From IMG/VR virus record IMGVR_UViG_3300034018_003010: a stretch of DNA of 64,000 bases; one strand, 5' to 3'. Position numbers and translations under genes: made by a program. The notes under the pieces were generated by a model. That model was not told the origin of the DNA, did no database searches, and saw only the letters and a list, made by a program, of their open reading frames with translations. This DNA comes from a virus. Of the stretch, positions 13,855 to 62,553 are shown in pieces; positions within the stretch are counted from its first letter, which is position 1, and the number at the start of each line of letters is the position of its first letter.

Positions 13855-15612
13855 TTACAAATTAAATATCCATTTCTTTTTGCCACAATCCCATATTCTT
13901 GCAAATCCTTTTTCCAAACAGATTTCTCTTTCTGTATTGGCATCAGGTTCTTGTTTTTTTTGCGATTGCTTACTTAGTCTAATATTTTTTTTATTTAAAT
14001 CTACATAGGAATAATCTGGTCCGCTTTCTCTTAATAATCTAAACCCGAGTTTTTCATACACGCCACCGCTGCTCCATCTATTATCACTCCATGAGCTTAC
14101 TTGAGCAAAGCCTTGAGATTTTGCCCATATACAACATCGTTTGAAAAGTCTAGATGATCCTCCTATTATTGAAATATTATCTTTAAAACATAAACGATCT
14201 AAAATTAACTCATCTACATTTCTGTGATGATTTCCAAAAGACATTCCTCCTATAAGTTTATTATCATAAAATAAACCATAAGAAATTATGGACAAATTAT
14301 TAGATCCTTGTATGTGATATTCATCACAAAAATATTTAAAATCAACTTTAGTAATTTCTTTAATTTCGCAATTTCTAGCAAATATCTTTAAGTCATTTTT
14401 ATTCAAAATTGACTTAATAAAATTTCTGCATTGTGTGTTTCTGTTTATCCACTCATCTTCAAAAATTGTAATAAGTCTAATCCCTTTATTTTTGCAAATT
14501 TTATATTTATCATGATGATATCTTCTTAATCTTGGTTCTGGGGATATTTCATTATGCCAATATAAACCGCAGTATTCAAAAGCAATTTTTTTATTTTCAT
14601 CATATAAATCAAGTTCTTTTCCATTGAGAATTTCATGATCAACATGAAAATTAAATCCAAATGAATTAACCCAATTTTCTATTTCGGCTTGAGTTTTGCC
14701 ATAATTTTTATTTTCTTCAAGCATGCAAGCTGCTGGAACGCCATACTTTTGAATATTAGTTTTAATCATTTTGCTAATTGTTTGTTGGTTTTGGCTTGCT
14801 CTAGGATATCCATATCTTTCAATATTTGTTTTTTCTATTTTTTCAATAACATTTTGATTTGCAAATGGACACTCGTACCCATATCTTTCTAAATTTGTTT
14901 GTTTTCTTTTATTATTAATTTCTTCATTTTGCAACGGATTAGTAACGCCATATTTTTCAATATTTGTTTGTACAATTTTTTGTTTCACATCTTCTCTCAT
15001 ACCAGAATATGGAACACCATGATTTTCTAAATTTGATTCAATTATTTTTTGCTTAACTTCTTCTGATTGAGAAGCATGTTCACAACCAAATCTTTCCAGA
15101 TTTGTTTGTTTCCTTTTTTCTTGTACTAATTCTGATTGCATGGCAAATTCAACGCCATGTTTCTCTAAATTGGTTTTTTTAGTTTTTTCTTTGACTTCTT
15201 CATTTTGCAATGAGCATTCTGTTCCATATTTTTCAATACATGTTTCTTTCATTTTTTGTTGAACAGAATCTGCTTGAGATGCAAATTCGCTTCCATATCT
15301 TTCCAGATTTGTTTTTTTCATTTTTTCCAAAGTTTGTGGCATCTTTTCTTTTATTTTTACTATTTTTTTAGCAATGACATCTGGTATTTGTGAAACATGG
15401 CTAACACCATATTTTGACATGCAACCATCTTCTTTTTTCTTTGCTTTACATTCTTTAGAACCACAACTATGTGTTGGGCTGTTTTTGCAGGCACGATTAA
15501 TTACTTTTATTTCTCTTTCAAATTCTTTTCCACAATAATCACATTTCCACCAGACTTTGTGGGAAATGGGAATTTTCTCAAAAGGAATTGAAAGTCTTTC
15601 ACTAATTAACAT
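13855..15612 (-). CDS. Hef-like homing endonuclease: Zn ribbon, 'TNLEKYG' repeats, PD-(D/E)xK nuclease, GNAT-like C-terminal domain
   Basis: VWWKCDYCG; ~9 K/T-N-[LI]-E-[KR]-[YFH]-G repeats; ELDLYDENKKIAFEYCGLYWH; HIQG..GLFY..LDRLC..GGSSRLF..SDNRWSSGGVYEKLGF. Confidence 0.8.
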   Translation of the reverse strand: MLISERLSIPFEKIPISHKVWWKCDYCGKEFEREIKVINRACKNSPTHSCGSKECKAKKKEDGCMSKYGVSHVSQIPDVIAKKIVKIKEKMPQTLEKMKKTNLERYGSEFASQADSVQQKMKETCIEKYGTECSLQNEEVKEKTKKTNLEKHGVEFAMQSELVQEKRKQTNLERFGCEHASQSEEVKQKIIESNLENHGVPYSGMREDVKQKIVQTNIEKYGVTNPLQNEEINNKRKQTNLERYGYECPFANQNVIEKIEKTNIERYGYPRASQNQQTISKMIKTNIQKYGVPAACMLEENKNYGKTQAEIENWVNSFGFNFHVDHEILNGKELDLYDENKKIAFEYCGLYWHNEISPEPRLRRYHHDKYKICKNKGIRLITIFEDEWINRNTQCRNFIKSILNKNDLKIFARNCEIKEITKVDFKYFCDEYHIQGSNNLSIISYGLFYDNKLIGGMSFGNHHRNVDELILDRLCFKDNISIIGGSSRLFKRCCIWAKSQGFAQVSSWSDNRWSSGGVYEKLGFRLLRESGPDYSYVDLNKKNIRLSKQSQKKQEPDANTEREICLEKGFARIWDCGKKKWIFNL

Positions 15613-36925: not shown

Positions 36926-38572
36926 TTAATATGATATATTGGTATTTAGTGCTTCACCTTTCTTCTTTGCAGCATTTTCTACCAATCCAACAAATAAAGG
37001 ACTAGCTGCGGTCAATCTAGATTTGAATTCTGGGTGAGCTTGAGTAGCAACAAAATATGGATGAACAGATTTGTCCATCTCCATAATTTCAATAAGATTC
37101 GATTCTGGATTCCTTCCTGATACCACAAAACCTTTTGAAGCAAATTCCAACCTACTAACCAATTCGCTATTAACCTCATAACGATGACGATGTCTTTCGG
37201 ATATGTTCTTCTTCTTGTAATATTCACTTGCCAAGGAATCTTTTGCAACCTCACAAGAATAAGATCCAAGTCGCATTGTACCAGACTTTTTCTTAATAGA
37301 TTCTTGACCGGGAATAAAATGCACAACAGGATGCGTTGTGCTCTTGTCAAATTCTTCAGAGTTTGCGTCTTCCCAGCCTATGCTTCTGGCAAATTCAATT
37401 ACAGCACATTGCAATCCAAGACAGATTCCCAAGAATGGTATCTTCTTTTCTCGAACATATTTGATTGCTCTTATTTTACCTTCTACACCACGACTATCAA
37501 ATCCTCCAGGAACGATAAGGCCATCAATGTCGTTAAAAAATTCCTTAAGACACTTGGAATCCTTGCAATCTTCTACCTGCGCAGCGTTAATCCATGATAT
37601 ATCAACTTTTACATTTTTATTTACAGCAGCATGAAATACAGCCTCTTTAAGACTCAAATAAGCTTCATCAAAGTTGTCATACTTGTTTAATATTCCAATC
37701 CTAATTGTCTTCAAATCTTTATTTCCAATATATTTTTCTACCAAGTCACGATACTTGTGAATCCTGACACCATTTCTAGTCAAATGAAACTTATCAATAA
37801 TCAAATCGTCAACATGCCTGTTGTAAAATTCAATTGGAACTTGATAAACGGTAGGAACATCTGGTGCTTCAAATACCGCAGAACGAGGAACATTAGTTAT
37901 ATTTGAAATCTTTTCCATAATCTGATTTGGTATCTGCCTATCTGTTCGACAGAATAATATCTCAGGTTGCAAACCGCTGCTTTGCATACTTTGAACGGCT
38001 TGTTGTAAAGGCTTGGTTTTGAATTCCTTTATTGTTGGAATCCAAAGAACAGGAGCCACCAAAGAAACAATTACATCATTGGCATTCTTTTGTTTAAACT
38101 GCCGTATTGCTTCTAAAAATGGATAAGCCTCTGAATCCCCTACTGTACCTCCAATTTCAACTAAAACTATATCTGCGTCTTTTCCTAAGTCTTTAAGCCT
38201 GTCAATTATCTTGTTAGTAACATGAGGAACAACTTGAACAGTCTGTCCCAAATACTTGCCTTCTTCTTGCTCTTGTATTATCTCTTTATATACAGTGCCA
38301 GAAGTTAATATATTCTTAGAGCTAACTTGACAACCAATGATTCTTTCATAGGTTCCCAAATCAAGATCTGTTTCACTGCCATCGTCGCACAAAAACACCT
38401 CTCCATGCTCTCTAGGAGCAAGGATGCCAGCATTTGTATTCAAGTAAGGATCAAACTTAATAGGGACTATTTTTAAGCCTCTAAGACTCAAAAGAAGACC
38501 CAAGCTGGCTATAGACACGCCTTTACCTGTGCCGCTTATTACCCCACCACAGACTACAATGTATTTAGCCAT
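36926..38572 (-). CDS. pyrG: CTP synthase
   Basis: KYIVVCGGVISGTGKG, KFDPYLN, HGEVF, EIGGTVGD, KTKP, PGGF..RG, GICLG, ERHRHRYEVN, QAHPEF. Confidence 0.98.
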   Translation of the reverse strand: MAKYIVVCGGVISGTGKGVSIASLGLLLSLRGLKIVPIKFDPYLNTNAGILAPREHGEVFLCDDGSETDLDLGTYERIIGCQVSSKNILTSGTVYKEIIQEQEEGKYLGQTVQVVPHVTNKIIDRLKDLGKDADIVLVEIGGTVGDSEAYPFLEAIRQFKQKNANDVIVSLVAPVLWIPTIKEFKTKPLQQAVQSMQSSGLQPEILFCRTDRQIPNQIMEKISNITNVPRSAVFEAPDVPTVYQVPIEFYNRHVDDLIIDKFHLTRNGVRIHKYRDLVEKYIGNKDLKTIRIGILNKYDNFDEAYLSLKEAVFHAAVNKNVKVDISWINAAQVEDCKDSKCLKEFFNDIDGLIVPGGFDSRGVEGKIRAIKYVREKKIPFLGICLGLQCAVIEFARSIGWEDANSEEFDKSTTHPVVHFIPGQESIKKKSGTMRLGSYSCEVAKDSLASEYYKKKNISERHRHRYEVNSELVSRLEFASKGFVVSGRNPESNLIEIMEMDKSVHPYFVATQAHPEFKSRLTAASPLFVGLVENAAKKKGEALNTNISY

Positions 38573-38926: not shown

Positions 38927-41518
38927 TTAGCTCTCGCAACTTGTACAAGTCAGAATTGATCTTGAAAAAGCCTGGGCGGCATTAACGGATATCTGGTAAT
39001 AAAGACCCTTGATGCCCATTTTCCAGCCTTCAATAATCAAAGCATTAACATCTTTAGTAGGAACAGAAGGATGAATCATAAGGTTAAGACTTTGACCTTG
39101 ATCAATATACTTCTGTCTTTGTGCTGCCTGAATCATAATCTCTTTAGGACTAATTTCGGCAAAAGTTTTGAATACATTCTTCTCTTCTTCGGTAAGACAT
39201 TCCAAATGCTGGACGCTTCCGCCATTCATAAGAATGCTCTTCCATACTTCTTCAGTATCATGTCCCTTCGCTTTCAAAAGCTTCTCAAGCTCTGCATTCT
39301 TGATTGTAAATTTACCCTTTTGCAGATCCTTAATGTAATAGTTGGTTCTATGAGGTTCAATACCTTCGGAAACCTGTCCTAAAATAAACGCCGAAGATTT
39401 TGTAGGGGCTATAGCAAGAAGAGTAGTGTTTCTTCTGCCATATCCTTTGCATACTTCTGGCTCACCATATTCTTCTGCTAGCTTTGCACTGGCTTTATAT
39501 GCAGCTTCCTTGATGTTTTTTGCAATTTGAGTATTATGGAACTTGGCTTCCATACTCTCCCAAGGAATCATCTTGCTTTGTAAGTAGCTATGCCAGCCAA
39601 GCCAGCCAACACCAAGAGCACGATGCCTTTCGGCAAATTTAACAGCCCTTTCCATAAACTTAATCTTCTTGGCTTTTTCAATGAATTCTGTCATCACAGC
39701 ATCAAGAAGATAGACAAGAAGCTCTACGGCATCTGTGTCTTTCCATTCATCATAATAAAGAATATTCATACTACTTAAATCACAGACAAATGATTCGTAT
39801 TCATTGTCTGGCAAAAAAATTTCCTGACATAGATTGCTATGTGTAATTTTTAATTCTTTATCTTTATAGCAATCTGCTGTATTATTATTTGCATTGTCAA
39901 TAAATGAAATATATGGATAGCCAAAGTTGGCTCTCATTTCGAGAACTTTAGCCCACACCTTTCTTTTGTCTGCATCTCCATTAATCATTTCTTCCATCCA
40001 ATAGTCTGGAACACAGACTCCGAATGAAAGATCTTGAATTGGGAATCCTTCAGTTCTTATCTGAAGGAATTCCATAATGTCGGCATGGTCAATAGGAAGA
40101 TAAGCAGCGAAGTTACCACGACGAGTGTTTCCACACACCATCACTCTGTCTTGATATCTAACTAAAAGCCTACCCTCTGGTACTATAGCACAATAAACTT
40201 TTCCTTTGTAATATTCTTCAGTTTTATTAATTGACTCGCCCCCTCTGTAGGAGTTTTCGCTTATATTTATACAATGCAAATCACGCCTGTTGCCGTAGGC
40301 AGGGCGAATTCTAACTCTGGTTTTTAAATCAGCCAATGCAGCAATTGCTTGAACAATATCTATATTTGTTTTATCTATGCTTGAATATGTAATGCATCCT
40401 CCATGAGATACACTTCCATCCCAACAAGATAGTTCCTCAATAAATTCTTGAGCCCAAATTCCATTTATTTCTTCAATTCTTACCCATTCAGAAAATGTTT
40501 TCTTTTTGACAGATTCTTCATATTCAAAATTAATACTAATTGTTTTATCTGGATTGGTTTTCTTTTCGTATTTAATTCCAATATCGTTTAGGATTTTTTC
40601 TAAGCGTTGAACCTTTCTTTCTTTAGCAAAATGAAAACGAATTTTTCTATTTGCGTCATCTTTTCTTCCATCCGCTTGATATGCAATCCTAAGTCTATCA
40701 AAATTGCTTAGACCATCTCCTTTGCCAGCCCAACCAGCTAATGGAATTCTATTGTCTCTATGGAGATTTAAATCCTGTGCTTCTACAATTTCAGTATTGG
40801 ATGGCCAATAACGCTCCCTGTCTTGCATTTTTCTGCGGCAAATAACCATGCGATGGTTAGGAGTCACCTTGATGGAAACAGAATTTTCAGTCTTTTTGCC
40901 AGAAAGACAAATTAAATTTCCTTCAAAATCATTTACAACCATTTCATATTTTTCAGTAAATGAAACATTATTAAATTCGTCAAGCTGCGCCAATTTATCA
41001 GTTGGCAAAACTTCTCTAAAATCTTTAAATCCATTATTTGTTAATACTTCAGTTCCTTCTATATAACAACTGCCTTGGCTAACAATTTGAATTAGGTTTT
41101 CAAACGCTTGCATAAAGTGAACAGCACCAGAGCTTTCTCCGTTGTTTCTGATAGATGCTCCTCTAGGTCTTAAGTTTCCAAATGTAGCAGAGGTTCCTCC
41201 ACCATATTTGGTCATCATTGCTACTTCTGCCCAAGTATATGCAATAGATTCCATAGAATCACCTATAGTGCTGCCAAAGCAACTAATGGGCAATCCTCTT
41301 TCATTGCCAAAGTTTGTCCAAATAGGAGTTGATAGGCTGTACCAACCCTTTTGAAAGTTTTCTTTAAACTTGGCAGCAAATCCCGGTTTGTTAAGCAGCT
41401 TTTCGGCAGTATTACAAATCTCATCAACTCTTTGATCGACAGTTTGACCATCGACCAAATAGTCTCTCTCAAGGAACACTTGAGACATTTCAGTAAGCCA
41501 TCTGTAGTTGCTGTTCAT
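38927..41518 (-). CDS. nrdA: Ribonucleotide reductase class I alpha subunit, intein-containing, no ATP-cone
   Basis: LPISC, GGGTS, SNLCQEI (active-site NxCxE), AIAPT.SS, QKYIDQGQSLN, LYY, C-terminal CTSC. Confidence 0.96.
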   Translation of the reverse strand: MNSNYRWLTEMSQVFLERDYLVDGQTVDQRVDEICNTAEKLLNKPGFAAKFKENFQKGWYSLSTPIWTNFGNERGLPISCFGSTIGDSMESIAYTWAEVAMMTKYGGGTSATFGNLRPRGASIRNNGESSGAVHFMQAFENLIQIVSQGSCYIEGTEVLTNNGFKDFREVLPTDKLAQLDEFNNVSFTEKYEMVVNDFEGNLICLSGKKTENSVSIKVTPNHRMVICRRKMQDRERYWPSNTEIVEAQDLNLHRDNRIPLAGWAGKGDGLSNFDRLRIAYQADGRKDDANRKIRFHFAKERKVQRLEKILNDIGIKYEKKTNPDKTISINFEYEESVKKKTFSEWVRIEEINGIWAQEFIEELSCWDGSVSHGGCITYSSIDKTNIDIVQAIAALADLKTRVRIRPAYGNRRDLHCINISENSYRGGESINKTEEYYKGKVYCAIVPEGRLLVRYQDRVMVCGNTRRGNFAAYLPIDHADIMEFLQIRTEGFPIQDLSFGVCVPDYWMEEMINGDADKRKVWAKVLEMRANFGYPYISFIDNANNNTADCYKDKELKITHSNLCQEIFLPDNEYESFVCDLSSMNILYYDEWKDTDAVELLVYLLDAVMTEFIEKAKKIKFMERAVKFAERHRALGVGWLGWHSYLQSKMIPWESMEAKFHNTQIAKNIKEAAYKASAKLAEEYGEPEVCKGYGRRNTTLLAIAPTKSSAFILGQVSEGIEPHRTNYYIKDLQKGKFTIKNAELEKLLKAKGHDTEEVWKSILMNGGSVQHLECLTEEEKNVFKTFAEISPKEIMIQAAQRQKYIDQGQSLNLMIHPSVPTKDVNALIIEGWKMGIKGLYYQISVNAAQAFSRSILTCTSCES
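40127..41068 (-). mobile_element. 314-aa intein with LAGLIDADG-type endonuclease in nrdA
   Basis: SQGS|CYIEGTEVLT..VTPNHRM..YQADG..LSCWDG..VYCAIVPEG.LLVR..VMVCGN|TRRG. Confidence 0.92.
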
Positions 41519-49575: not shown

Positions 49576-50404
49576 GTTTAAACAGCTTTATTTTAAGGAA
49601 TGGCTAGGAACGAGCCCAGCAGCTTTATTTGGTTTTCCATCAAATGCCAAAACACATAAAGCAACTACCAGTTTATATGAAGAAGAACCTCTGGAACCAC
49701 TAAAAATTTCAGGAATTTTAACCGAACTTGTTAATTTGGGAAAAATAGGAAATAAGAAACCTTCTAGAAAATTTGAAAGCAAAGTTGTTTATGGCGAAAC
49801 TATAAATCCAGTAGGAAATTATACTGTAGAAGTTTCTCCTTTTGGATCTTTGAAAATAATAATAAGAAGAGAAATAACTGATTTAACTGGTGAAAGTGTT
49901 GCCATTTGCAAGAATATACTTCCTTTAATTAATGATTACAATCATATAGGAGATATGGATATCGAAGAAGAACTTAGAATTGCTGTTAATGTAAATAGCT
50001 ATCTTGAATCTGTAGACAAAACACCATTAGAATCTCCAAATGCAAAATATACTGGATTAAGAAAATTAACTTTAGACATAGCTTCTGAAGTAAGAGCTAG
50101 ACATCCGGCTGTTATGATTTATAATGGAACAATTGAAAATAATGAAAATAATTACACAATATATTTTTCATTTACTGGAAACGGTGTTGAATCTCCAAGT
50201 GCTAATAGAGCAGAACAATTTAATATCAATTTGGCATATTACCCAGAAAAAGGATTAATAAGATGTTGGGGAAATGATATATTATCTCCTACTAAACAAA
50301 GATTGTGGAAACTTCAACCAAGCGAGTGGGATGAATATTATTCTCCATCTCAACCCAATAAAGAAATTGTAGAAACAATAAGAAATGCATTCTCAACTTA
50401 CTAA
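49574..50404 (+). CDS. Hypothetical protein with capsid-targeting-like N-terminus
   Basis: MFKQLYFKEWL. Confidence 0.7.
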   Translation: MFKQLYFKEWLGTSPAALFGFPSNAKTHKATTSLYEEEPLEPLKISGILTELVNLGKIGNKKPSRKFESKVVYGETINPVGNYTVEVSPFGSLKIIIRREITDLTGESVAICKNILPLINDYNHIGDMDIEEELRIAVNVNSYLESVDKTPLESPNAKYTGLRKLTLDIASEVRARHPAVMIYNGTIENNENNYTIYFSFTGNGVESPSANRAEQFNINLAYYPEKGLIRCWGNDILSPTKQRLWKLQPSEWDEYYSPSQPNKEIVETIRNAFSTY

Positions 50405-51090
50405 GCAGACTCAAAATCAAACATTTTATTATAAACAGTTTGTACTTTTTCTAAGTTATAGTCATCATATTTTTTAGTATTTGATAGATCTTTTATATCT
50501 TGAAGAAGTTCTGGTTTTATTATTTTTATCCACTTTGAAACCAAAATATACAAAGGACTTATTTTTTTCAATATAACAAATTTTAAAATATCAAGACTTG
50601 AGTTTATATATTTTTCTTTTGTTACATCACTTCCTAGTATTGATAAAATTGTTTTTTTTGTTTTATCTAATTCCATTTCAATATTGCTTTCAACAACATG
50701 ATATTCAATTTTTGTTGTGGCGTTTTCAACAGCTACTTTTTTCTTCCATAGCATCCATCTTTTTTCAGATTGTTCTCCATGAAGACAATTAGCTTCAACT
50801 ACCACTTGGTGGCCATCATTTTGTATTTTTTTAAGAATCTCAAGCTGTGCTCTCATGTATAAAACAAATTGAAATCCTTTAAAGGTTTTATTTTTATCTC
50901 TTACAAACTTTAAAATATTCTTAAACAAATATGTTTTTCTAATATCTCCTTTTCTACCACTAATCTTTTGGTGTCTGTAGTTTGGAAATATCTTGTGTCT
51001 TAATTCAACCCAATGACAAGTGAGTTGATAAGCCAGAGTTTCTTCTGGAGTGAAGTTGCCTTCTACAGCGATCTGGGGGTCGTATTGCAT
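50401..51090 (-). CDS. Hypothetical protein, possibly gp59-like helicase loader
   Basis: AYQL..F.NY..K..G..RKTYLFK pattern weakly resembles the gp59 N-terminus; divergent from the polA/helicase operon. Confidence 0.45.
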   Translation of the reverse strand: MQYDPQIAVEGNFTPEETLAYQLTCHWVELRHKIFPNYRHQKISGRKGDIRKTYLFKNILKFVRDKNKTFKGFQFVLYMRAQLEILKKIQNDGHQVVVEANCLHGEQSEKRWMLWKKKVAVENATTKIEYHVVESNIEMELDKTKKTILSILGSDVTKEKYINSSLDILKFVILKKISPLYILVSKWIKIIKPELLQDIKDLSNTKKYDDYNLEKVQTVYNKMFDFESA

Positions 51091-51105
51091 TTTTCTAGTC
51101 TACGC

Positions 51106-51135
51106 TTGAATTCTTCTTTTGCAAGAGGTTATACT
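51106..51135 (+). promoter_or_regulatory. Sigma70-like promoter for the structured RNA
   Basis: TTGAAT (51106-11), 18-nt spacer, TATACT (51130-35); predicted TSS ~51142. Confidence 0.6.
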
Positions 51136-51144
51136 TCAATTAAG

Positions 51145-51600
51145 TCAAGGAGTAAGGCCAAGTGTCTGCCTGAACTAGCTTGACGGTTTTAAGTGGTTAA
51201 ATTTATTTAAACACTTGAGACTAAAACCATGTTGAGACGGTACCCCCTGTCAAGGCCCGTTAGGAAATCTGGGATCCTAACGATTCAACAACGCAGATGA
51301 GGTGAGCCTTTACCTGCCTAATTTCGGCAGGCAGTTATGTGAAGAGTAAAGTATCTTAGAACTGAAAAGTTTTTAGAACTAAATCTCTTCTAAGAACAAA
51401 AACTTAAGAATCTTGATTCTTGTTAGTTTGTTTTATGCATAACAGGGTAAAGGTTAAGATTCTGTTCAAAAAGACACATTAGTTTTATCTAAGTTGTTTT
51501 TACAGCTTAGGCGAAACCAAGTGGATTAGACTTTAAAAAGGTTTAAGTAATCTTTACTTAATCCTTTTATTTTTGTCTTACCCCCCTTGGCCTGCCCCCC
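51145..51600 (+). ncRNA. Large structured non-coding RNA of unknown class (~450 nt)
   Basis: Longest ORF-free gap in the window. Nested helices incl. 51155-62/51586-93, 51162-67/51472-77, 51185-95/51212-22, 51258-65/51275-82, 51305-15/51445-55, 51334-40/51437-43, 51488-96/51503-11; G-U pairs work only on the + strand. Confidence 0.75.
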
Positions 51601-51678
51601 AGTGCGGACTGATAATTACATTTAATGTAATCATATAATCTGTTTGTTTGATTCCTCTAGAAGTGTTAAAGTTCAAGT

Positions 51679-52998
51679 ATGAAAAACCTTTGCGATTTGA
51701 CTTCCAATCTTTATGAGGCTTGTGGAGTTGAGAAGTTTTTGTTTTGTGTTTGGACACCAGCAGATCCAGATTCCACAACTTTGGTTGATTGCAATATTAA
51801 ATTACAAATATTTGGGGTTAAAGGTTATAATCAAATATTTAATATAAATCCAGATAATGCTTTGTTGGTAGCTACTATGTTGACGACAGTTATAAATGAA
51901 AAAAATATTATGGTTGTTGGTTATAACTTTAAAAATCTTTACACATTATTTGGCAGGCTATGTGGTAAAAATATTTTCTTTAAGTATTTTTATGATTTGT
52001 ATTGGTATGAATCTTACAATTCTCTGCCTAGTTCAGTAGGCAACATCGGCATGGCGACTAAAAACTTTATTACCTTTACTAAAGATGCCAGCGCTATAAA
52101 ATTATATAAACTAATTTATATGCAATTAATTCAACAGGTTGTTCCTGCTTTGGAATCTTTCATTTTAAGGCACGATTTTAAGTGTGTGCTGGTTTATCCG
52201 AATTATGTGGTCGAAGGCCAAGAGAACGGAAGATTGCTGTGTAACAACGAAAAAAAGTACTCTTACAACCCACACTCGTTGGGGGGTGATAAATCGGCTC
52301 TTACATTGCCTCAAAAATACACATACTTTATGCAGATGGATTACAAAAATATGGAAGTAGCTGTTTTGGCAGAAATAGCTAATGACGAGAATCTTCTTAA
52401 GATAGTAAATAATAGCGAAGATGTATATGCGGATATATTTTACAAAGTTACTGGTGATATTAATTTTGAAAATGCAAGGGAATTCGGCAAAAAAATGTTT
52501 TTGCCGGTTATATATGGACAGACAGCAAACAGTCTGTCAAAAGTTCTCGATATTTCATTAGATCAATCAGAAAAATTTATAAACAATTTAAGGGAGCAGT
52601 TCCCAGCATCTTTTCATTTTGTTGAAAAGAGTTCAAATGAAGCAAGATCTCAAGGTTTTTGTTTAGATTATTTTGGTAGGAAAAGAATTTTCGATGATTC
52701 TACTTATTACAAAGCAAGAAATTTTGTTGTACAATCTCCAGCATCATTGATTTGTTTATATTATTTGGTAAAATTATACAAGGGTGCTAAAAATTTGTTT
52801 TCTTTAGTTTTTCATGTGCATGATGGTTACTTTATGGCTATTTCCAAAGAAAATTTGAAAGATGGTTATAAAGTTGCAAAAAATATACTTGAGAGTGAAA
52901 ACGAATTGATTCCATCCCTTAAATTAAAAGTAAGTTCCAAGATAGGTCTAAGATTAGACAATATGCAAAGTACTGAAAAACACAAAGGGAAAAAATGA
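51679..52998 (+). CDS. Minimal family-A DNA polymerase (thumb-less, degenerate 3'-5' exonuclease)
   Basis: NGRLL, motif A MDYKNMEVAVLA, motif B REFGKKMFLPVIYG, DYFGRKR, NFVVQS, motif C VHDG; only 439 aa. Confidence 0.88.
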   Translation: MKNLCDLTSNLYEACGVEKFLFCVWTPADPDSTTLVDCNIKLQIFGVKGYNQIFNINPDNALLVATMLTTVINEKNIMVVGYNFKNLYTLFGRLCGKNIFFKYFYDLYWYESYNSLPSSVGNIGMATKNFITFTKDASAIKLYKLIYMQLIQQVVPALESFILRHDFKCVLVYPNYVVEGQENGRLLCNNEKKYSYNPHSLGGDKSALTLPQKYTYFMQMDYKNMEVAVLAEIANDENLLKIVNNSEDVYADIFYKVTGDINFENAREFGKKMFLPVIYGQTANSLSKVLDISLDQSEKFINNLREQFPASFHFVEKSSNEARSQGFCLDYFGRKRIFDDSTYYKARNFVVQSPASLICLYYLVKLYKGAKNLFSLVFHVHDGYFMAISKENLKDGYKVAKNILESENELIPSLKLKVSSKIGLRLDNMQSTEKHKGKK

Positions 52999-53555
52999 GT
53001 TCGATATATAAAAACTTTCCAATTACTTCGGAAGAGTATACAAAGTTAGATAAAAAGTTTGGTAAACTTTGTTATTATGCGGCTTGGCAATTAACTAGGA
53101 AGAATTGTAATAATAATCATCAATATGATTTAGATGATTTTCAACAAGAATTGATGTTAGCTGTGTTGAGAGCTGGAAGCTATTATAAGAGGCAGATTTT
53201 TTTGAATTCTTGTTTTGACACTTTATTACTTAATAAAAAATTAGACAAAGTTTCAAAGTTAGTTTTGGAAGAGTTAATAAATTTGTGGAAGAACAGAACT
53301 AGGCACGGTGCGAATAGGCAGACTTTTGGCGACTATCAAGAATTAGTTCTTGAAAAAATATGTAATAGTTTTTTAAAAATCAATGAGCGACCTGATAAAG
53401 AAAGGTCTTTGCAATTTGATTTGAAATTTTCGACATACTGCAAACAAATCGTATGGAATTGCCAAAGAAATTTAGGTAAAAAGATTACAAGAGAAAAGCC
53501 ACTGAGAGGTGGCCAGGTCAGTATTTCTGATCATGATTATTTAGTAGATGGGTGA
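52995..53555 (+). CDS. Sigma-factor region-2-like protein
   Basis: KFGKLCYYAAW..DLDDFQQELMLAVLRA..KFSTYCKQIVWN. Confidence 0.55.
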   Translation: MSSIYKNFPITSEEYTKLDKKFGKLCYYAAWQLTRKNCNNNHQYDLDDFQQELMLAVLRAGSYYKRQIFLNSCFDTLLLNKKLDKVSKLVLEELINLWKNRTRHGANRQTFGDYQELVLEKICNSFLKINERPDKERSLQFDLKFSTYCKQIVWNCQRNLGKKITREKPLRGGQVSISDHDYLVDG

Positions 53556-53558
53556 AAA

Positions 53559-55064
53559 GTGAGTGATCTCAGCGAACAGGAAAAAGAGACACTCAAAGCC
53601 CTTATAACTACAGACTCTCAAAAGATTAAGTTCAAGTGGGATGATAATTTTCAAAGAAGAATTTTAGCTTTAATATTGACCGACAGCTTTTTTTTGATTC
53701 AGGCTAGAGCTTTGATAGTGCCAGAGTATTTTTCAAACGATTCTCATGTTGATGTGGCTACTGTTTTGTATGCTTATTTTGATACTTATAAAACAATGCC
53801 TGACAAAGAGTTCATGAAACACCTTGTGTCAGAAAAAATAAAAGGCAGATCGGATGCAATAAAGCTTTATTATAAAAATGAATTGGAAAACATCTACGAA
53901 TCTTTTATTCCTCCTTCAGAAATAAAACCAGCTTTGCTTGACAAACTACTTGCATTTGCCAAGATGCAGGCCTTGCGTATTGCTATGGATTTATCACAAA
54001 AAGATTTAAAAACAAATAATCCTGAAGATGAATCTACATGGACTACGATATGTGAAAGATTTCAAAACGCTTTAAATGTCAATAAGAATTTTGAAATAGG
54101 TTTTGAATATTTTAATAACTTGCAAGAAATTTTTGCTGATCTTGAAAATGACATCAAGCCAGAAGATAAGTTTACTTCTGGATTTTCCAAGATTGATGAT
54201 AGTCTTTCTTTTGGAGGATGCCGAAGAGGCGAGATTTATTCTTTTATAGGTTTGCCTGGAAAAGGTAAATCTTTGTGTTTGGTGAAAAGCGCTGTAGAAA
54301 ATATCAAGGTGGGCAAAAAGGTTGTGTATCTTTCTTTGGAAATGGATTGCATGTCCATAGCCAGAAGATTCACTAGTCAATTTGCTATGGTTCCTCATGC
54401 TCACATTTCAAAGCACAAGAGAGAAATTGAAGATCTTATTAATATAAATACACGAGAATTCATTGATAAAAATCGTTTTATAATTAAACAATTTCCTTCT
54501 GGCACTCTTGATATATCTGGAATTAGATCATATTTAGAGCAAATTATAATTAGTGGTTTTAGACCAGACTTGTTAATTATAGATTATCCGGGGGAAATGA
54601 AAGACGTTCCTGGAATTTCTACATGGGAATCAAAGTATCGTATTATGCGAGACTTGCGTGGCCTTGCCATAATTCATCAAATGTGTGTTTATGTTGCAAT
54701 TCAACCAAATAAGCTTGCAGCAAGCCACACATTAGAAGAGTACATTGATGAAAACAGCATTGGCGGGTCGTTTGATCAAGTCAAGCCTTTAGATGGTTTG
54801 TGGAGCATAAATCAAACCAACGATGAGACAACTGCTGGATATGGTAGAATTTTTGTTGTAAAGCACAGAAATGGCAAGGCTAAGTTTGCGTTTCCTATAA
54901 AATATGATAAAGAAACTTTAGACATCAACGAATGTTCTGAAGGAGAATATAGAATAGCTTTGCACAATATACACAATCAAAAAGCAGATGTTGCCAATGT
55001 AGACGGAAGAAAGAATTCAAAGAAAAAAGAACCTAAAGAGGAGGACGTGGATTATGCAGAGTGA
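53559..55064 (+). CDS. Replicative DnaB-like helicase (T4 gp41-like)
   Basis: TSGFSKIDD..GG.RRGE, GLPGKGKS, YLSLEM, IKQFP, LIIDY, VKHRNG. Confidence 0.93.
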   Translation: MSDLSEQEKETLKALITTDSQKIKFKWDDNFQRRILALILTDSFFLIQARALIVPEYFSNDSHVDVATVLYAYFDTYKTMPDKEFMKHLVSEKIKGRSDAIKLYYKNELENIYESFIPPSEIKPALLDKLLAFAKMQALRIAMDLSQKDLKTNNPEDESTWTTICERFQNALNVNKNFEIGFEYFNNLQEIFADLENDIKPEDKFTSGFSKIDDSLSFGGCRRGEIYSFIGLPGKGKSLCLVKSAVENIKVGKKVVYLSLEMDCMSIARRFTSQFAMVPHAHISKHKREIEDLININTREFIDKNRFIIKQFPSGTLDISGIRSYLEQIIISGFRPDLLIIDYPGEMKDVPGISTWESKYRIMRDLRGLAIIHQMCVYVAIQPNKLAASHTLEEYIDENSIGGSFDQVKPLDGLWSINQTNDETTAGYGRIFVVKHRNGKAKFAFPIKYDKETLDINECSEGEYRIALHNIHNQKADVANVDGRKNSKKKEPKEEDVDYAE

Positions 55065-55499: not shown

Positions 55500-56000
55500 A
55501 TGAAGCGTGGAACTGTTAGGGAAGATGGCATGATATATATTCGAAAGAATAGGGATAAGGAAATTTGGGGAACCAAACAAGAATTTGAGAGAACGGAGAA
55601 ATGGCGAAAAGAATACATGGAAAAAAGAAGGAACATGGATCGAAGTTTGCCAGAAAATAAAAAATATAAAATTGGACAATATAATCCAGAAAATGGATTG
55701 TATTTTATTAGAAAATCAGGAAACCTTACTGCAATTTGGGGCACTGAAGAACAACTTTTAGAATATAGAAAAAAAAGAAAAGCTATGAAAGTTGTTTACA
55801 TTCAGAAAATGAAAGTATTAAAAAAAGAAAAAATGAGCAATTTAGAGCGCCGTTGGAGAAGAGGTGATTTGGATCCTGTTTTGGGGTTAGTTTTTTTTAA
55901 ATATAATTCCGATAATGGAAATGAAATTTGGTATGCAAAAGAAAAATTTAAAAAAATTATCGGTAAAGAAAAGCAACTTCGGTCTCTTAGAGGATCATAA
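55500..56000 (+). CDS. Basic protein with three 'G..(D/N)G..F...E.W' repeats (probable DNA-binding, endonuclease-associated)
   Basis: KRGTVREDGMIY..EIWGT / KIGQYNPENGLYF..AIWGT / RRGDLDPVLGLVF..EIWYA. Confidence 0.6.
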   Translation: MKRGTVREDGMIYIRKNRDKEIWGTKQEFERTEKWRKEYMEKRRNMDRSLPENKKYKIGQYNPENGLYFIRKSGNLTAIWGTEEQLLEYRKKRKAMKVVYIQKMKVLKKEKMSNLERRWRRGDLDPVLGLVFFKYNSDNGNEIWYAKEKFKKIIGKEKQLRSLRGS

Positions 56001-56001
56001 A

Positions 56002-56877
56002 ATGAAATCTATAGATGATAATAATTCAGCATATAATTTGGATATGCTGAGGCAGTCTAATGACATAGCCTACAAATGGGCTAAACATTTTAAGTTTTCT
56101 TCAAATAAGTATTTGACAAGTGTTATTAAAATGTACAAAAATAAAAGTTTTTTTTGTGCAAAACTTAGTAAGAATAATCGTAAACTTTTTTTAGAAGATT
56201 ATACAAAAATGTTTTATGCTATTGAAGTAGAAAACGAAATTATTAAACAGTATTATCATGTAATTATACATATAATTAAAAAATTAAAAATAGAGCAATC
56301 TTTAGTAGAATATTACATCGAAATTGGAATGTATACCTTGAGACAATCTGTTTGGAATTATAGAACTCATGAAGCTAATGTTAAATTTATTACTTTTTGC
56401 TATAATGGCATTAATATGAGATTGCGTGGGGAAAGATCTAAGTTGACAATGTATAACAATAGAAAAAAGAGAGTTCTAGAGAGGCTTGAGTCTGATATTA
56501 TAAAAAAAGAAGATTATAACGGTTTTTCTAATATATGTGTTTTCAACCATGATGTAAATGAAAAGATTGAAGAGGAAGAAGTTCAATCTTTGTTTTCAAA
56601 AGCAATAGACATCTCAAACTTGCAAGAAGATGAGCTTTTCTTGCTTACAGAGTATATGAATAGAGATTATTTAAACCAGAATTGGAATGCAATTTATAGG
56701 AATAAGTTTAAAAACACTGGTAAGAATGGAAATACAATATCTAGACAAGGAGTTCATAACAAGTTGATGGCTATTCAAAGAAAGATATACTTGTCACTTG
56801 TAAGATTGGGCTATAATGTTGACATAAAGAAAGTTTCTTTTACAAGAAGATATAATGAATTTGAGGTTGTTTTATGA
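56002..56877 (+). CDS. Sigma70-family-like factor
   Basis: IIKQYYHVIIHII..EIGMYTLRQSVWNY..KFITFCY (region 2); ISRQGVHNK (region-4-like); GAGG SD before ATG 56002. Confidence 0.6.
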   Translation: MKSIDDNNSAYNLDMLRQSNDIAYKWAKHFKFSSNKYLTSVIKMYKNKSFFCAKLSKNNRKLFLEDYTKMFYAIEVENEIIKQYYHVIIHIIKKLKIEQSLVEYYIEIGMYTLRQSVWNYRTHEANVKFITFCYNGINMRLRGERSKLTMYNNRKKRVLERLESDIIKKEDYNGFSNICVFNHDVNEKIEEEEVQSLFSKAIDISNLQEDELFLLTEYMNRDYLNQNWNAIYRNKFKNTGKNGNTISRQGVHNKLMAIQRKIYLSLVRLGYNVDIKKVSFTRRYNEFEVVL

Positions 56878-61061: not shown

Positions 61062-61325
61062 ATGGACGCTTCAAGAAAAAGATATGAAGTTGAAAATATT
61101 ATTTTTTCTTCTTTAGAAGATTTGGTTGATGTCGATGTTGAAACCATAGACAGATCAAAATCTTTTTTGGAATATGGAATGGATAGCATTGATTGTTTAG
61201 ATTTTTTATATCAAGTGGAGGACAAATTAGATTTAAGCAGAAAATTAGATCATTCCGATGTTGGCGATGTTTTGTCTGTAGATAGCGTTTTGAATGCTAT
61301 AGACAAAAAGATTAAACTGATTTAA
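61062..61325 (+). CDS. Acyl carrier protein-like
   Basis: Acidic 87 aa; SFLEYGMDSIDCLDFLYQVEDKL contains the GxDS phosphopantetheine site; AAGGAGG SD. Confidence 0.85.
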   Translation: MDASRKRYEVENIIFSSLEDLVDVDVETIDRSKSFLEYGMDSIDCLDFLYQVEDKLDLSRKLDHSDVGDVLSVDSVLNAIDKKIKLI

Positions 61326-61644: not shown

Positions 61645-62553
61645 ATGTTTTCAAAATGTTATAGAAGATTTGGTGTTGAAATCGAATATAATTCTTTTGA
61701 TAAATTAAGCAGATCTGTCGGATTTAATGGATTGCCTAGCGGGATTTATAATATTGCAGACATTTTGTCCGATGTTTTAAAAGAAGAAATTGAAATTAAT
61801 AGATGGCACAATACAAATAATAACAATTTATGGGTTGTCAAGCCAGATTCTAGTTGTGGAATTGAAGTTTGCAGCCCTCCAAAAATACATCATAATGTTT
61901 TAGATCAAATATACAATAGCATTAATGCGATTTCAAAAAATAATTTTATTGAAGCTGATAATAGGTGTAGTTTTCATATTCATGTTGAAATTGAAGATTT
62001 TGATGATGAAAATTTAAAAAGTATAGTTTACAATTGGTTGATTTTTGAACCTATATTTTTTGCTTGCTGCTCATCTAACAGATGGATTAACAATTATTGC
62101 AAACCACTATCTTTTAGTTTTAATATTAGTAATACTGATTTTATTGATTCGATTTTAGATAGCTTGATGGAAAACAAGTATTTTGCAATAAATTTATGCA
62201 ACTACAAAAAAAAGAAAAAAAGAACTGTAGAAATACGAATAATGGGTGGAGAAGCGTGTTTATCTCCCGATTTAGCTTTAAATTGGTGTAAATTAATATT
62301 ATGCTTTGTAGAACAATGTAAAAAAAATACTTTAAAACCAAATTATTCTGATATAAATTATGGTAGTTTTAAAGACTTTGATATGTTAATGAACTTGGAT
62401 GATTTTTTTGGAAATAACAAAATGAAACTCTGGGTAAAAGAAAGGGTTAAAATTATATATGATATGTTTAAAGATTCGGCTGATTTAAATATTTTGACAT
62501 GGCTAAAGATAATTGAGAATTATGATGAAAGAAGAGGAGATTTTAATGCTTAA
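61645..62553 (+). CDS. Putative amidoligase (COOH-NH2 ligase, phiEco32-like)
   Basis: FGVEIE, WVVKPDSSCGIEVCSPP, CSFHIHV, KYFAIN, TVEIR. Confidence 0.85.
   Translation: MFSKCYRRFGVEIEYNSFDKLSRSVGFNGLPSGIYNIADILSDVLKEEIEINRWHNTNNNNLWVVKPDSSCGIEVCSPPKIHHNVLDQIYNSINAISKNNFIEADNRCSFHIHVEIEDFDDENLKSIVYNWLIFEPIFFACCSSNRWINNYCKPLSFSFNISNTDFIDSILDSLMENKYFAINLCNYKKKKKRTVEIRIMGGEACLSPDLALNWCKLILCFVEQCKKNTLKPNYSDINYGSFKDFDMLMNLDDFFGNNKMKLWVKERVKIIYDMFKDSADLNILTWLKIIENYDERRGDFNA

Follow-up and report, generated by a model that had tools for sequence, protein, structure and literature searches.

What does a large gap free of open reading frames do in front of a DNA polymerase that has lost its thumb? The question is raised by the window analysed here, a 64,000-nt stretch of viral DNA that represents a piece of a large tailed phage, with genes for tail sheath, baseplate, ribonucleotide reductase, SbcCD-like proteins, Dda- and UvsW-like helicases, DnaB, a gp32-like SSB and a RecA-like protein. 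An earlier note had proposed, from adjacency in this one genome, that the gap encodes a structured RNA forming a ribonucleoprotein with the polymerase, in which the RNA replaces the thumb, provides a primer in the manner of ColE1 RNA II, or provides a template. The locus comprises the following features.

50401..51090, minus strand: C2, a divergent gene for a 229-aa all-helical protein, conserved on the upstream side of either the RNA or C20, the gene that replaces it
51106..51135, plus strand: sigma70-like promoter, TTGAAT-18-TATACT, upstream of the RNA
51145..51603, plus strand: large multi-pseudoknot non-coding RNA, ~460 nt, with ends placed from conservation
51615..51631, no strand assigned: AT-rich DNA palindrome just past the RNA tail, a candidate protein-binding or unwinding site
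51679..52998, plus strand: PolA, a family A DNA polymerase of 439 aa, thumb deleted and exonuclease degenerate (PF00476, E 2.5e-30)
52995..53555, plus strand: C1, a conserved 186-aa partner gene overlapping the PolA stop, with 94 members across 102 loci
53559..55064, plus strand: DnaB-like replicative helicase, in the same operon as PolA

A knotted RNA in the gap

The gap spans 51091-51678 (588 nt) and is indeed free of open reading frames; all the motifs previously named in it were found at their coordinates, and PolA starts 76 nt past the RNA tail, close to the ~80 nt first estimated. Compared with shuffles, folding of 51140-51600 gives z = -6.1 on the plus strand and -5.6 on the minus strand. 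The Rfam search that had been called for was run and returned no known family for the window RNA at the gathering score, with only chance matches at E<=10; the RNAs of ten divergent homologues were likewise unmatched. ARAGORN found no tRNA or tmRNA in the gap, and covariance models of the group I intron, RNase P, tmRNA, GOLLD and ROOL did not match in the window, in agreement with the absence of tRNA, tmRNA, RNase P and intron signatures noted by eye. Neither blastn of the RNA against isolated phages nor a single-protein locus search gave a match, and the RNA is undescribed in the literature searched, a scope outside which most subscription papers fell.

To define the fold, 18 homologues were aligned without use of structure (mean column identity 41%). 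A model of 47 pairs, four of its helices crossing as pseudoknots, leaves 89.7% of cells paired, and compensatory change is seen in 32 of the 47 pairs. None of 500 shuffles scored as high and slid controls reached 31-49%, controls that are somewhat favourable because the model was read from those same 18 sequences. Between the 5' hairpin and the 3' tail lie a three-way junction, two long-range helices and a crossing helix, and the elements are placed on the plus strand as follows:

51155..51171: 5' hairpin, 51155-58/51168-71, 100% paired, 2/4 pairs compensatory
51162-66 with 51473-77: pseudoknot A, joining the 5' hairpin loop to a partner ~300 nt downstream, 98.9% paired, 3/5 compensatory
51223..51303: RNA core, in which AAAACC (51226-28) pairs with AGGU (51301-03) and crosses helix 51294-97/51461-64
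51231-51289: three-way junction within the core
51269-51273 with 51598-51602: pseudoknot C, joining a loop to the 3' tail, 93% paired
51305..51455: long-range helix 51305-15/51445-55, with loop 51326-31 and a variable insertion, 51335-51444, inside it
51591-96 with 51326-31: pseudoknot B, joining the tail to the enclosed loop, 92.6% paired, 4/6 compensatory
51591..51603: 3' tail, the probable 3' end and a candidate primer end

Thus the knotted RNA is real, but it is folded differently from the model first proposed. The 8-bp helix thought to close the whole RNA (51155-62/51586-93) is only 61% paired across homologues and the TGAAC/GTTCA helix 48%; neither is conserved and both were rejected, their bases pairing instead in the 5' hairpin and the 3'-tail pseudoknots. 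As a whole, the original helix set was matched by 39 of 500 shuffles. The long-range helix 51305-15/51445-55 was retained, and the suggestion that G-U pairs fix the plus strand was borne out by an invariant G-U pair in 18/18 homologues together with many other G-U changes. A-rich linkers are also invariant in the alignment. The weakest of the four crossing helices is AAAACC/AGGU, for which ACU/AGU variants were seen by eye in two loci (L072 and L163). The U-rich/C6 segment at 51565-51585, put forward as a possible template, varies in sequence and is partly the 3' arm of a variable hairpin, and is therefore not a conserved template.

In remote loci the pairing of loop and tail is maintained by three sequence versions, the variants of pseudoknot C being CGGG/CCCG, CGAG/CUCG and CAAG/CUUG. 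We take this regular-expression test as supportive only, because several candidates were allowed per locus and at least L048, L165 and L030 were mis-picked.

The promoter TTGAAT-18-TATACT is present at 51106-51135, as reported before. Promoter-like sites alone occur at chance level (2 found, 2.0 expected), and comparison across 35 homologues, which are related sequences and not independent, showed that 19 have a promoter scoring 9/12 or better ahead of the RNA, against 4.5 expected from shuffles, and that 11 have a second promoter between the tail and PolA, against 1.8 expected. The enrichment at both positions suggests a separate RNA transcript. No terminator was found after the RNA tail in the window. 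The palindrome just past the tail occurs once in the window, and a similar TTACA..TGTAA lies in L002, L003 and L006.

PolA and the RNA across related phages

An AlphaFold model of PolA (pLDDT 95) superposes on Klentaq with Z 31 over 392 aligned residues, residues 6-431 covering Klentaq 295-832. Over the same span PolA is ~110 residues shorter, and the deletion corresponds to the thumb, between the 'VLPxIE' pre-thumb helix and the 'GRL' hairpin. The catalytic residues D221 and D382 are kept, as are the steric-gate E226, R184 and K271, and Leu275 occupies the F762 position. In 69 homologues D221, E226, K271, H381 and D382 are invariant and the acidic exonuclease residues only partly kept. The palm/fingers fold with motifs A, B and C is present; compared with Pol I, both the thumb subdomain and an active 3'-5' exonuclease were missing. 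More than 200 homologues have a similar length. The description of PolA as thumb-less is thus confirmed.

For comparison, 165 loci were fetched, mostly from large phage contigs of up to 595 kb, and collapsed into 102 groups at 90% identity, the window included. Across these groups the order is stable: divergent C2, a gap of 430-870 nt, PolA, C1 and DnaB. C1 has a sigma-70 region-2-like lead from weak PHROG and Atlas matches, and a complex prediction of PolA with C1 scored 0.01, which speaks neither for nor against such a complex; fold searches with C2 returned helical matches only, all with Z<6. PolA is an accessory enzyme, since DnaE, split or whole, is present on the phage contig in 4/5 records and PolB in none of the 5. 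Weak DnaG-like matches in 2 RNA-type phages point to a lagging-strand primase coded separately.

A covariance model built from 9 sequences gave 33 matches in 870 kb, all of them on the plus strand in the gap before PolA, with none elsewhere in the flanks; 17 matches at E<=0.01 lie outside the training set. The RNA is therefore found upstream of homologous polymerases. Where insertions have placed genes between C2 and PolA, the gap in most cases keeps its place next to PolA (L032, L043, L048, L053, L056, L060, L075, L078 and L148), the exceptions being L061 and L146, where a gene sits between RNA and PolA; genes that separate the two may lie in either orientation. RNA sub-types cluster on the PolA tree and track PolA clades, and the sub-families differ greatly while PolA is conserved. 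Together with the skew switch described below, these insertions and this co-clustering extend the link between RNA and polymerase beyond adjacency in a single genome.

Structured gaps are also present in other PolA clades, where they differ in sequence and are putative relatives of the window RNA. Sorting of these remote sub-families, among them the groups of L027, L056, L017 and L103, relied on nhmmer and inspection by eye, so that their self-matches hold by construction. A different candidate RNA sub-family lies upstream of PolA in L027, L033, L037, L050, L059, L107 and L113, with a small basic ORF between it and PolA. L054:1531-1989 and L131:1194-1637 are structured gaps (z about -3) sharing a conserved GACTCCCC/GGGGAGTC pair, with three or four genes between gap and PolA. 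In L065:2000-3700 the RNA motif AGGTAAGCC occurs 1.75 kb before PolA, followed by an apparent TnpB/IS remnant.

C20 and the skew switch at the locus

In 8 of the 102 groups the gap is absent and its slot is taken by a gene of 340-420 aa, C20, often overlapping the PolA start. A search from the C20 side added four more C2-C20-PolA loci, and no gap or RNA match was found in the 12 C20 loci. Of the large contigs examined, only G007, which has no RNA, carries C20; nine others do not. Mapped on the PolA tree, its distribution needs about 5 separate changes, 4 of them forced by strong branches. Thus, in the sequences compared, the RNA and this gene are mutually exclusive at the locus.

C20 has no Pfam match, no profile match to the window PolA and no named match in Pfam, PHROG and PDB searches. 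Its motifs are YGRVHTN, DIxNSQP and TIHDS, with R184, D211, R280-K284 and D357 invariant; these read as motifs of family A, the IHDS being T7-RNAP-like, with a probable Gln at the steric gate by position. The C20 model reaches an Atlas TM of 0.85 to a 'family A palm' cluster. It also has the minimal core of the TV-Pols, namely a hairpin Arg, two palm aspartates, the RxxxK fingers motif and an N-terminal helical domain. TV-Pols, whose features were taken from the same source, are predicted primases (PMC2579912), and one of them, CcPol with MP, primes de novo (PMC7581432). From the motifs and the Atlas label we infer that C20 is TV-Pol-like, with a role as primase.

Distant C20 relatives adjoin integrases or sit in other phage contexts. 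One C20-type locus (L323:3571-11224) has RNase H beside C2 and a gene with a Cas12/C2c1 RuvC-like domain past C1. C20 relatives without a close PolA match are present in LR756501-LR756504 and LR745206 (634-735 kb), which we take to be the largest known phage genomes.

Replacement in situ by a non-homologous gene is a standard hint of equivalent function. Since C20 replaces the RNA in this way, the function of the RNA points to priming, and its exchange for a primase-like enzyme in several lineages suggests that it primes phage DNA replication.

Is the locus, then, where replication starts? Of the genomes, only G002 and G010 were fitted by a global skew model with two breakpoints, and a local test was therefore used, based on gene-strand-corrected keto skew at fourfold sites. 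In G002 (533 kb, complete) the raw cumulative GC-skew minimum falls at 512,997, inside the RNA and 250 nt before PolA, and the corrected origin-polarity switch peaks 2.2 kb before PolA. In G003, whose RNA ends at -968, the corrected switch peaks 1.0 kb before PolA; in G007 the distance is 3.7 kb, and C20 sits at that position. G002, G003 and G007 each have an opposite switch roughly across the genome. For LR756511, detrending of the raw skew puts its minimum 430 nt before PolA, and the corrected test is less sharp. Because the switch is thus found between 0.25 and 3.7 kb ahead of the PolA start in these four complete relatives, the RNA-PolA locus is probably a replication origin, at a skew resolution of 1-4 kb and with the two skew measures disagreeing in some genomes. 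Among partial contigs the locus ranks in the top 0.5-1% in G010, 3-6% in G001 and G004 and 8-24% in G005, the signal being weak or not the best in G001, G004, G005 and the window, which alone is too short for a skew call. Since C20-type phages, which lack the RNA, switch at this locus too, the skew implicates the locus and not the RNA.

A proposed primer RNA and alternative roles

We consider it somewhat probable that the locus is a module that initiates replication in a clade of huge tailed phages, by means of a primer RNA that acts on the same principle as ColE1 RNA II. In ColE1, a 550-nt RNA forms a persistent hybrid, RNase H cuts it, Pol I extends it and the origin opens for the helicase (PMC5043065). 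Counterparts of these steps are found in the phage module: an RNA with a promoter, a PolA suited to short synthesis, a neighbouring DnaB and a DnaE elsewhere; RNase H was found in 1/5 phage records. RNA polymerase would make the knotted RNA, whose fold would either hold the 3' tail on the transcribed DNA as a persistent R-loop or present the 3' end. PolA would extend that end briefly, a low processivity fitting the missing thumb, and this short synthesis would open the origin so that DnaB can load and DnaE take over. In lineages without the RNA, the protein primase-polymerase would provide the primer. The conserved 3' tail pairs inside the RNA and would therefore compete with hybridisation to DNA; speculatively, the displaced DNA strand, which matches the tail in sequence, might be bound by the two G-rich loops in place of the RNA's own C-rich tail, and the R-loop would so be locked.

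The resemblance to ColE1 RNA II thus lies in a structured non-coding RNA of similar size with its own promoter, probably at an origin as judged by skew in four complete relatives (1-4 kb resolution), and in a family A polymerase for first synthesis, with a helicase loading and Pol III-like hand-over that would follow here too. Unlike RNA II, to which it has no sequence or Rfam similarity, the phage RNA is multi-pseudoknotted with a self-pairing 3' tail; the polymerase is coded by the element itself, thumb-less and exonuclease-degenerate; and no RNA I-like antisense was seen, a consensus scan finding no minus-strand promoter in 50900-51800. ColE1 is moreover a small plasmid, whereas this is a huge phage with a two-sided skew switch. 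If the RNA is a plain primer, the mechanism would be a new variant on ColE1 logic.

Of the three roles first suggested for the RNA, the primer has gained support, because a primase-like gene replaces the RNA in several lineages. A telomerase- or retron-like template has none, because the proposed segment is unconserved and the enzyme is a PolA, not a reverse transcriptase; an assignment to retron, DRT or telomerase-type template ribonucleoproteins was rejected on the same two grounds.

An initiator ribonucleoprotein, in which the RNA binds PolA, its loops capture the displaced strand to hold the origin open and it supplies the primer, is possible though doubtful. If true, an RNA interchangeable with a protein primase would define a new class of replication-initiating ribonucleoprotein. 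We regard as unlikely a stable ribonucleoprotein in which the RNA, in complex with PolA and perhaps C1 or C2, acts as scaffold or nucleic-acid thumb, or self-primes or self-templates short DNA, a reading that would still allow an origin role by a different mechanism. Four crossing helices and invariant A-rich linkers are more ornate than a simple primer needs, the loss of the thumb is precise and RNA types are co-inherited with PolA clades, but the same thumb-less PolA is kept in at least 12 loci without the RNA, which weakens the idea of thumb replacement in particular; the sub-families of the RNA diverge greatly against a conserved protein, and no template segment is conserved.

It is improbable that the RNA is a cis-regulatory leader, riboswitch-like or protein-sensing, of the PolA-C1-DnaB operon. 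Its strand, its position 30-200 nt before the start codon in most loci and the lack of a detectable terminator past the tail are what a leader would show; against this, a second promoter lies between tail and PolA more often than expected (the 11 of 35 homologues given above), genes in either orientation may separate RNA and PolA, the tail pairs internally and not with the ribosome-binding site, and replacement by a polymerase gene is left unexplained. Little probability likewise attaches to an independent large phage RNA, a GOLLD/ROOL-like scaffold or ribozyme, that merely sits beside the origin in a conserved early region. Such an RNA would have its own promoter and a size and ornateness like those of GOLLD, ROOL and OLE, and the order of the core helices loosely recalls, by eye, the P3/P7/P8 crossing of group I introns; yet the RNA is absent elsewhere in 870 kb of flanks, remains with PolA and not with C2, is repeatedly excluded by C20 and matches no Rfam intron, ribozyme or large RNA. 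That the structure works as single-stranded DNA at the unwound origin, as a folded priming or loading signal, is highly improbable: the position at the skew switch and the palindrome past the tail would suit it, but invariant and frequent G-U pairs, long-range pseudoknots and a conserved promoter just upstream are signatures of RNA.

The primer reading brings the module close to several described systems. The TV-Pol/CcPol-MP-Cch2 system of SCCmec also combines a reduced family A polymerase, a helicase and a small partner in origin priming (PMC2579912, PMC7581432, PMC10061031), and C20, whose relatives adjoin integrases, resembles TV-Pol; in CcPol-MP-Cch2, however, the partner is an OB-fold SSB protein, the thumb is merely shortened and there is no RNA (PMC7581432, PMC10061031). 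divPolA1 of Immutovirus-like phages is, like PolA, an accessory enzyme of ~440 aa with a truncated thumb and dead exonuclease, encoded upstream of replication genes in a phage that has another replicative polymerase (PMC11348598). PolA was not classed with it: the kinship is remote (hhalign 55%, 20% identity), the neighbours differ, Immutovirus was not among the strong tblastn matches of PolA, and MW353176, the one genome checked, has no non-coding gap upstream.

The phage RNA shares its size, many helices and pseudoknots with GOLLD, ROOL, OLE, raiA and HEARO, but neither the window RNA nor the ten divergent homologues match Rfam. All are bacterial or phage RNAs that also have conserved nucleotides at their junctions, and we know of none tied to a DNA polymerase or an origin. 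The RNA family and the module match nothing described in our searches. For huge phages, the module points to their origin of replication. Few large ornate RNAs have a candidate function, GOLLD, ROOL and OLE being, to our knowledge, still largely unexplained. Repeated swaps of an RNA and a primase-like protein in one slot would, if true, be a natural functional interchange comparable to that between RNase P RNA and protein-only RNase P.

Several other genes of the window and its relatives deserve mention. The ribonucleotide reductase large subunit (38927-41518, minus strand, 863 aa) has, in translation, an apparent intein-like insert that starts CYIEG and ends VMVCGN. A DUF7487 and Mom-family domain protein (13855-15612, minus strand) is a possible DNA modification enzyme, and 36926-38572 (minus strand) is a phage-coded CTP synthase. 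On the plus strand, a 320-aa ORF without a Pfam match (55915-56877) resembles, by eye, a second sigma-like factor, and a small acyl-carrier-like protein with a GMDSID motif, also recognised by eye (61062-61325), adjoins a putative amidoligase (61645-62553). Finally, the phage contigs L164 (CAYVOK010000001.1) and L165 were binned into bacterial MAGs (Acidimicrobiaceae and Neisseriaceae), which we do not read as host evidence because mis-binning is probable.
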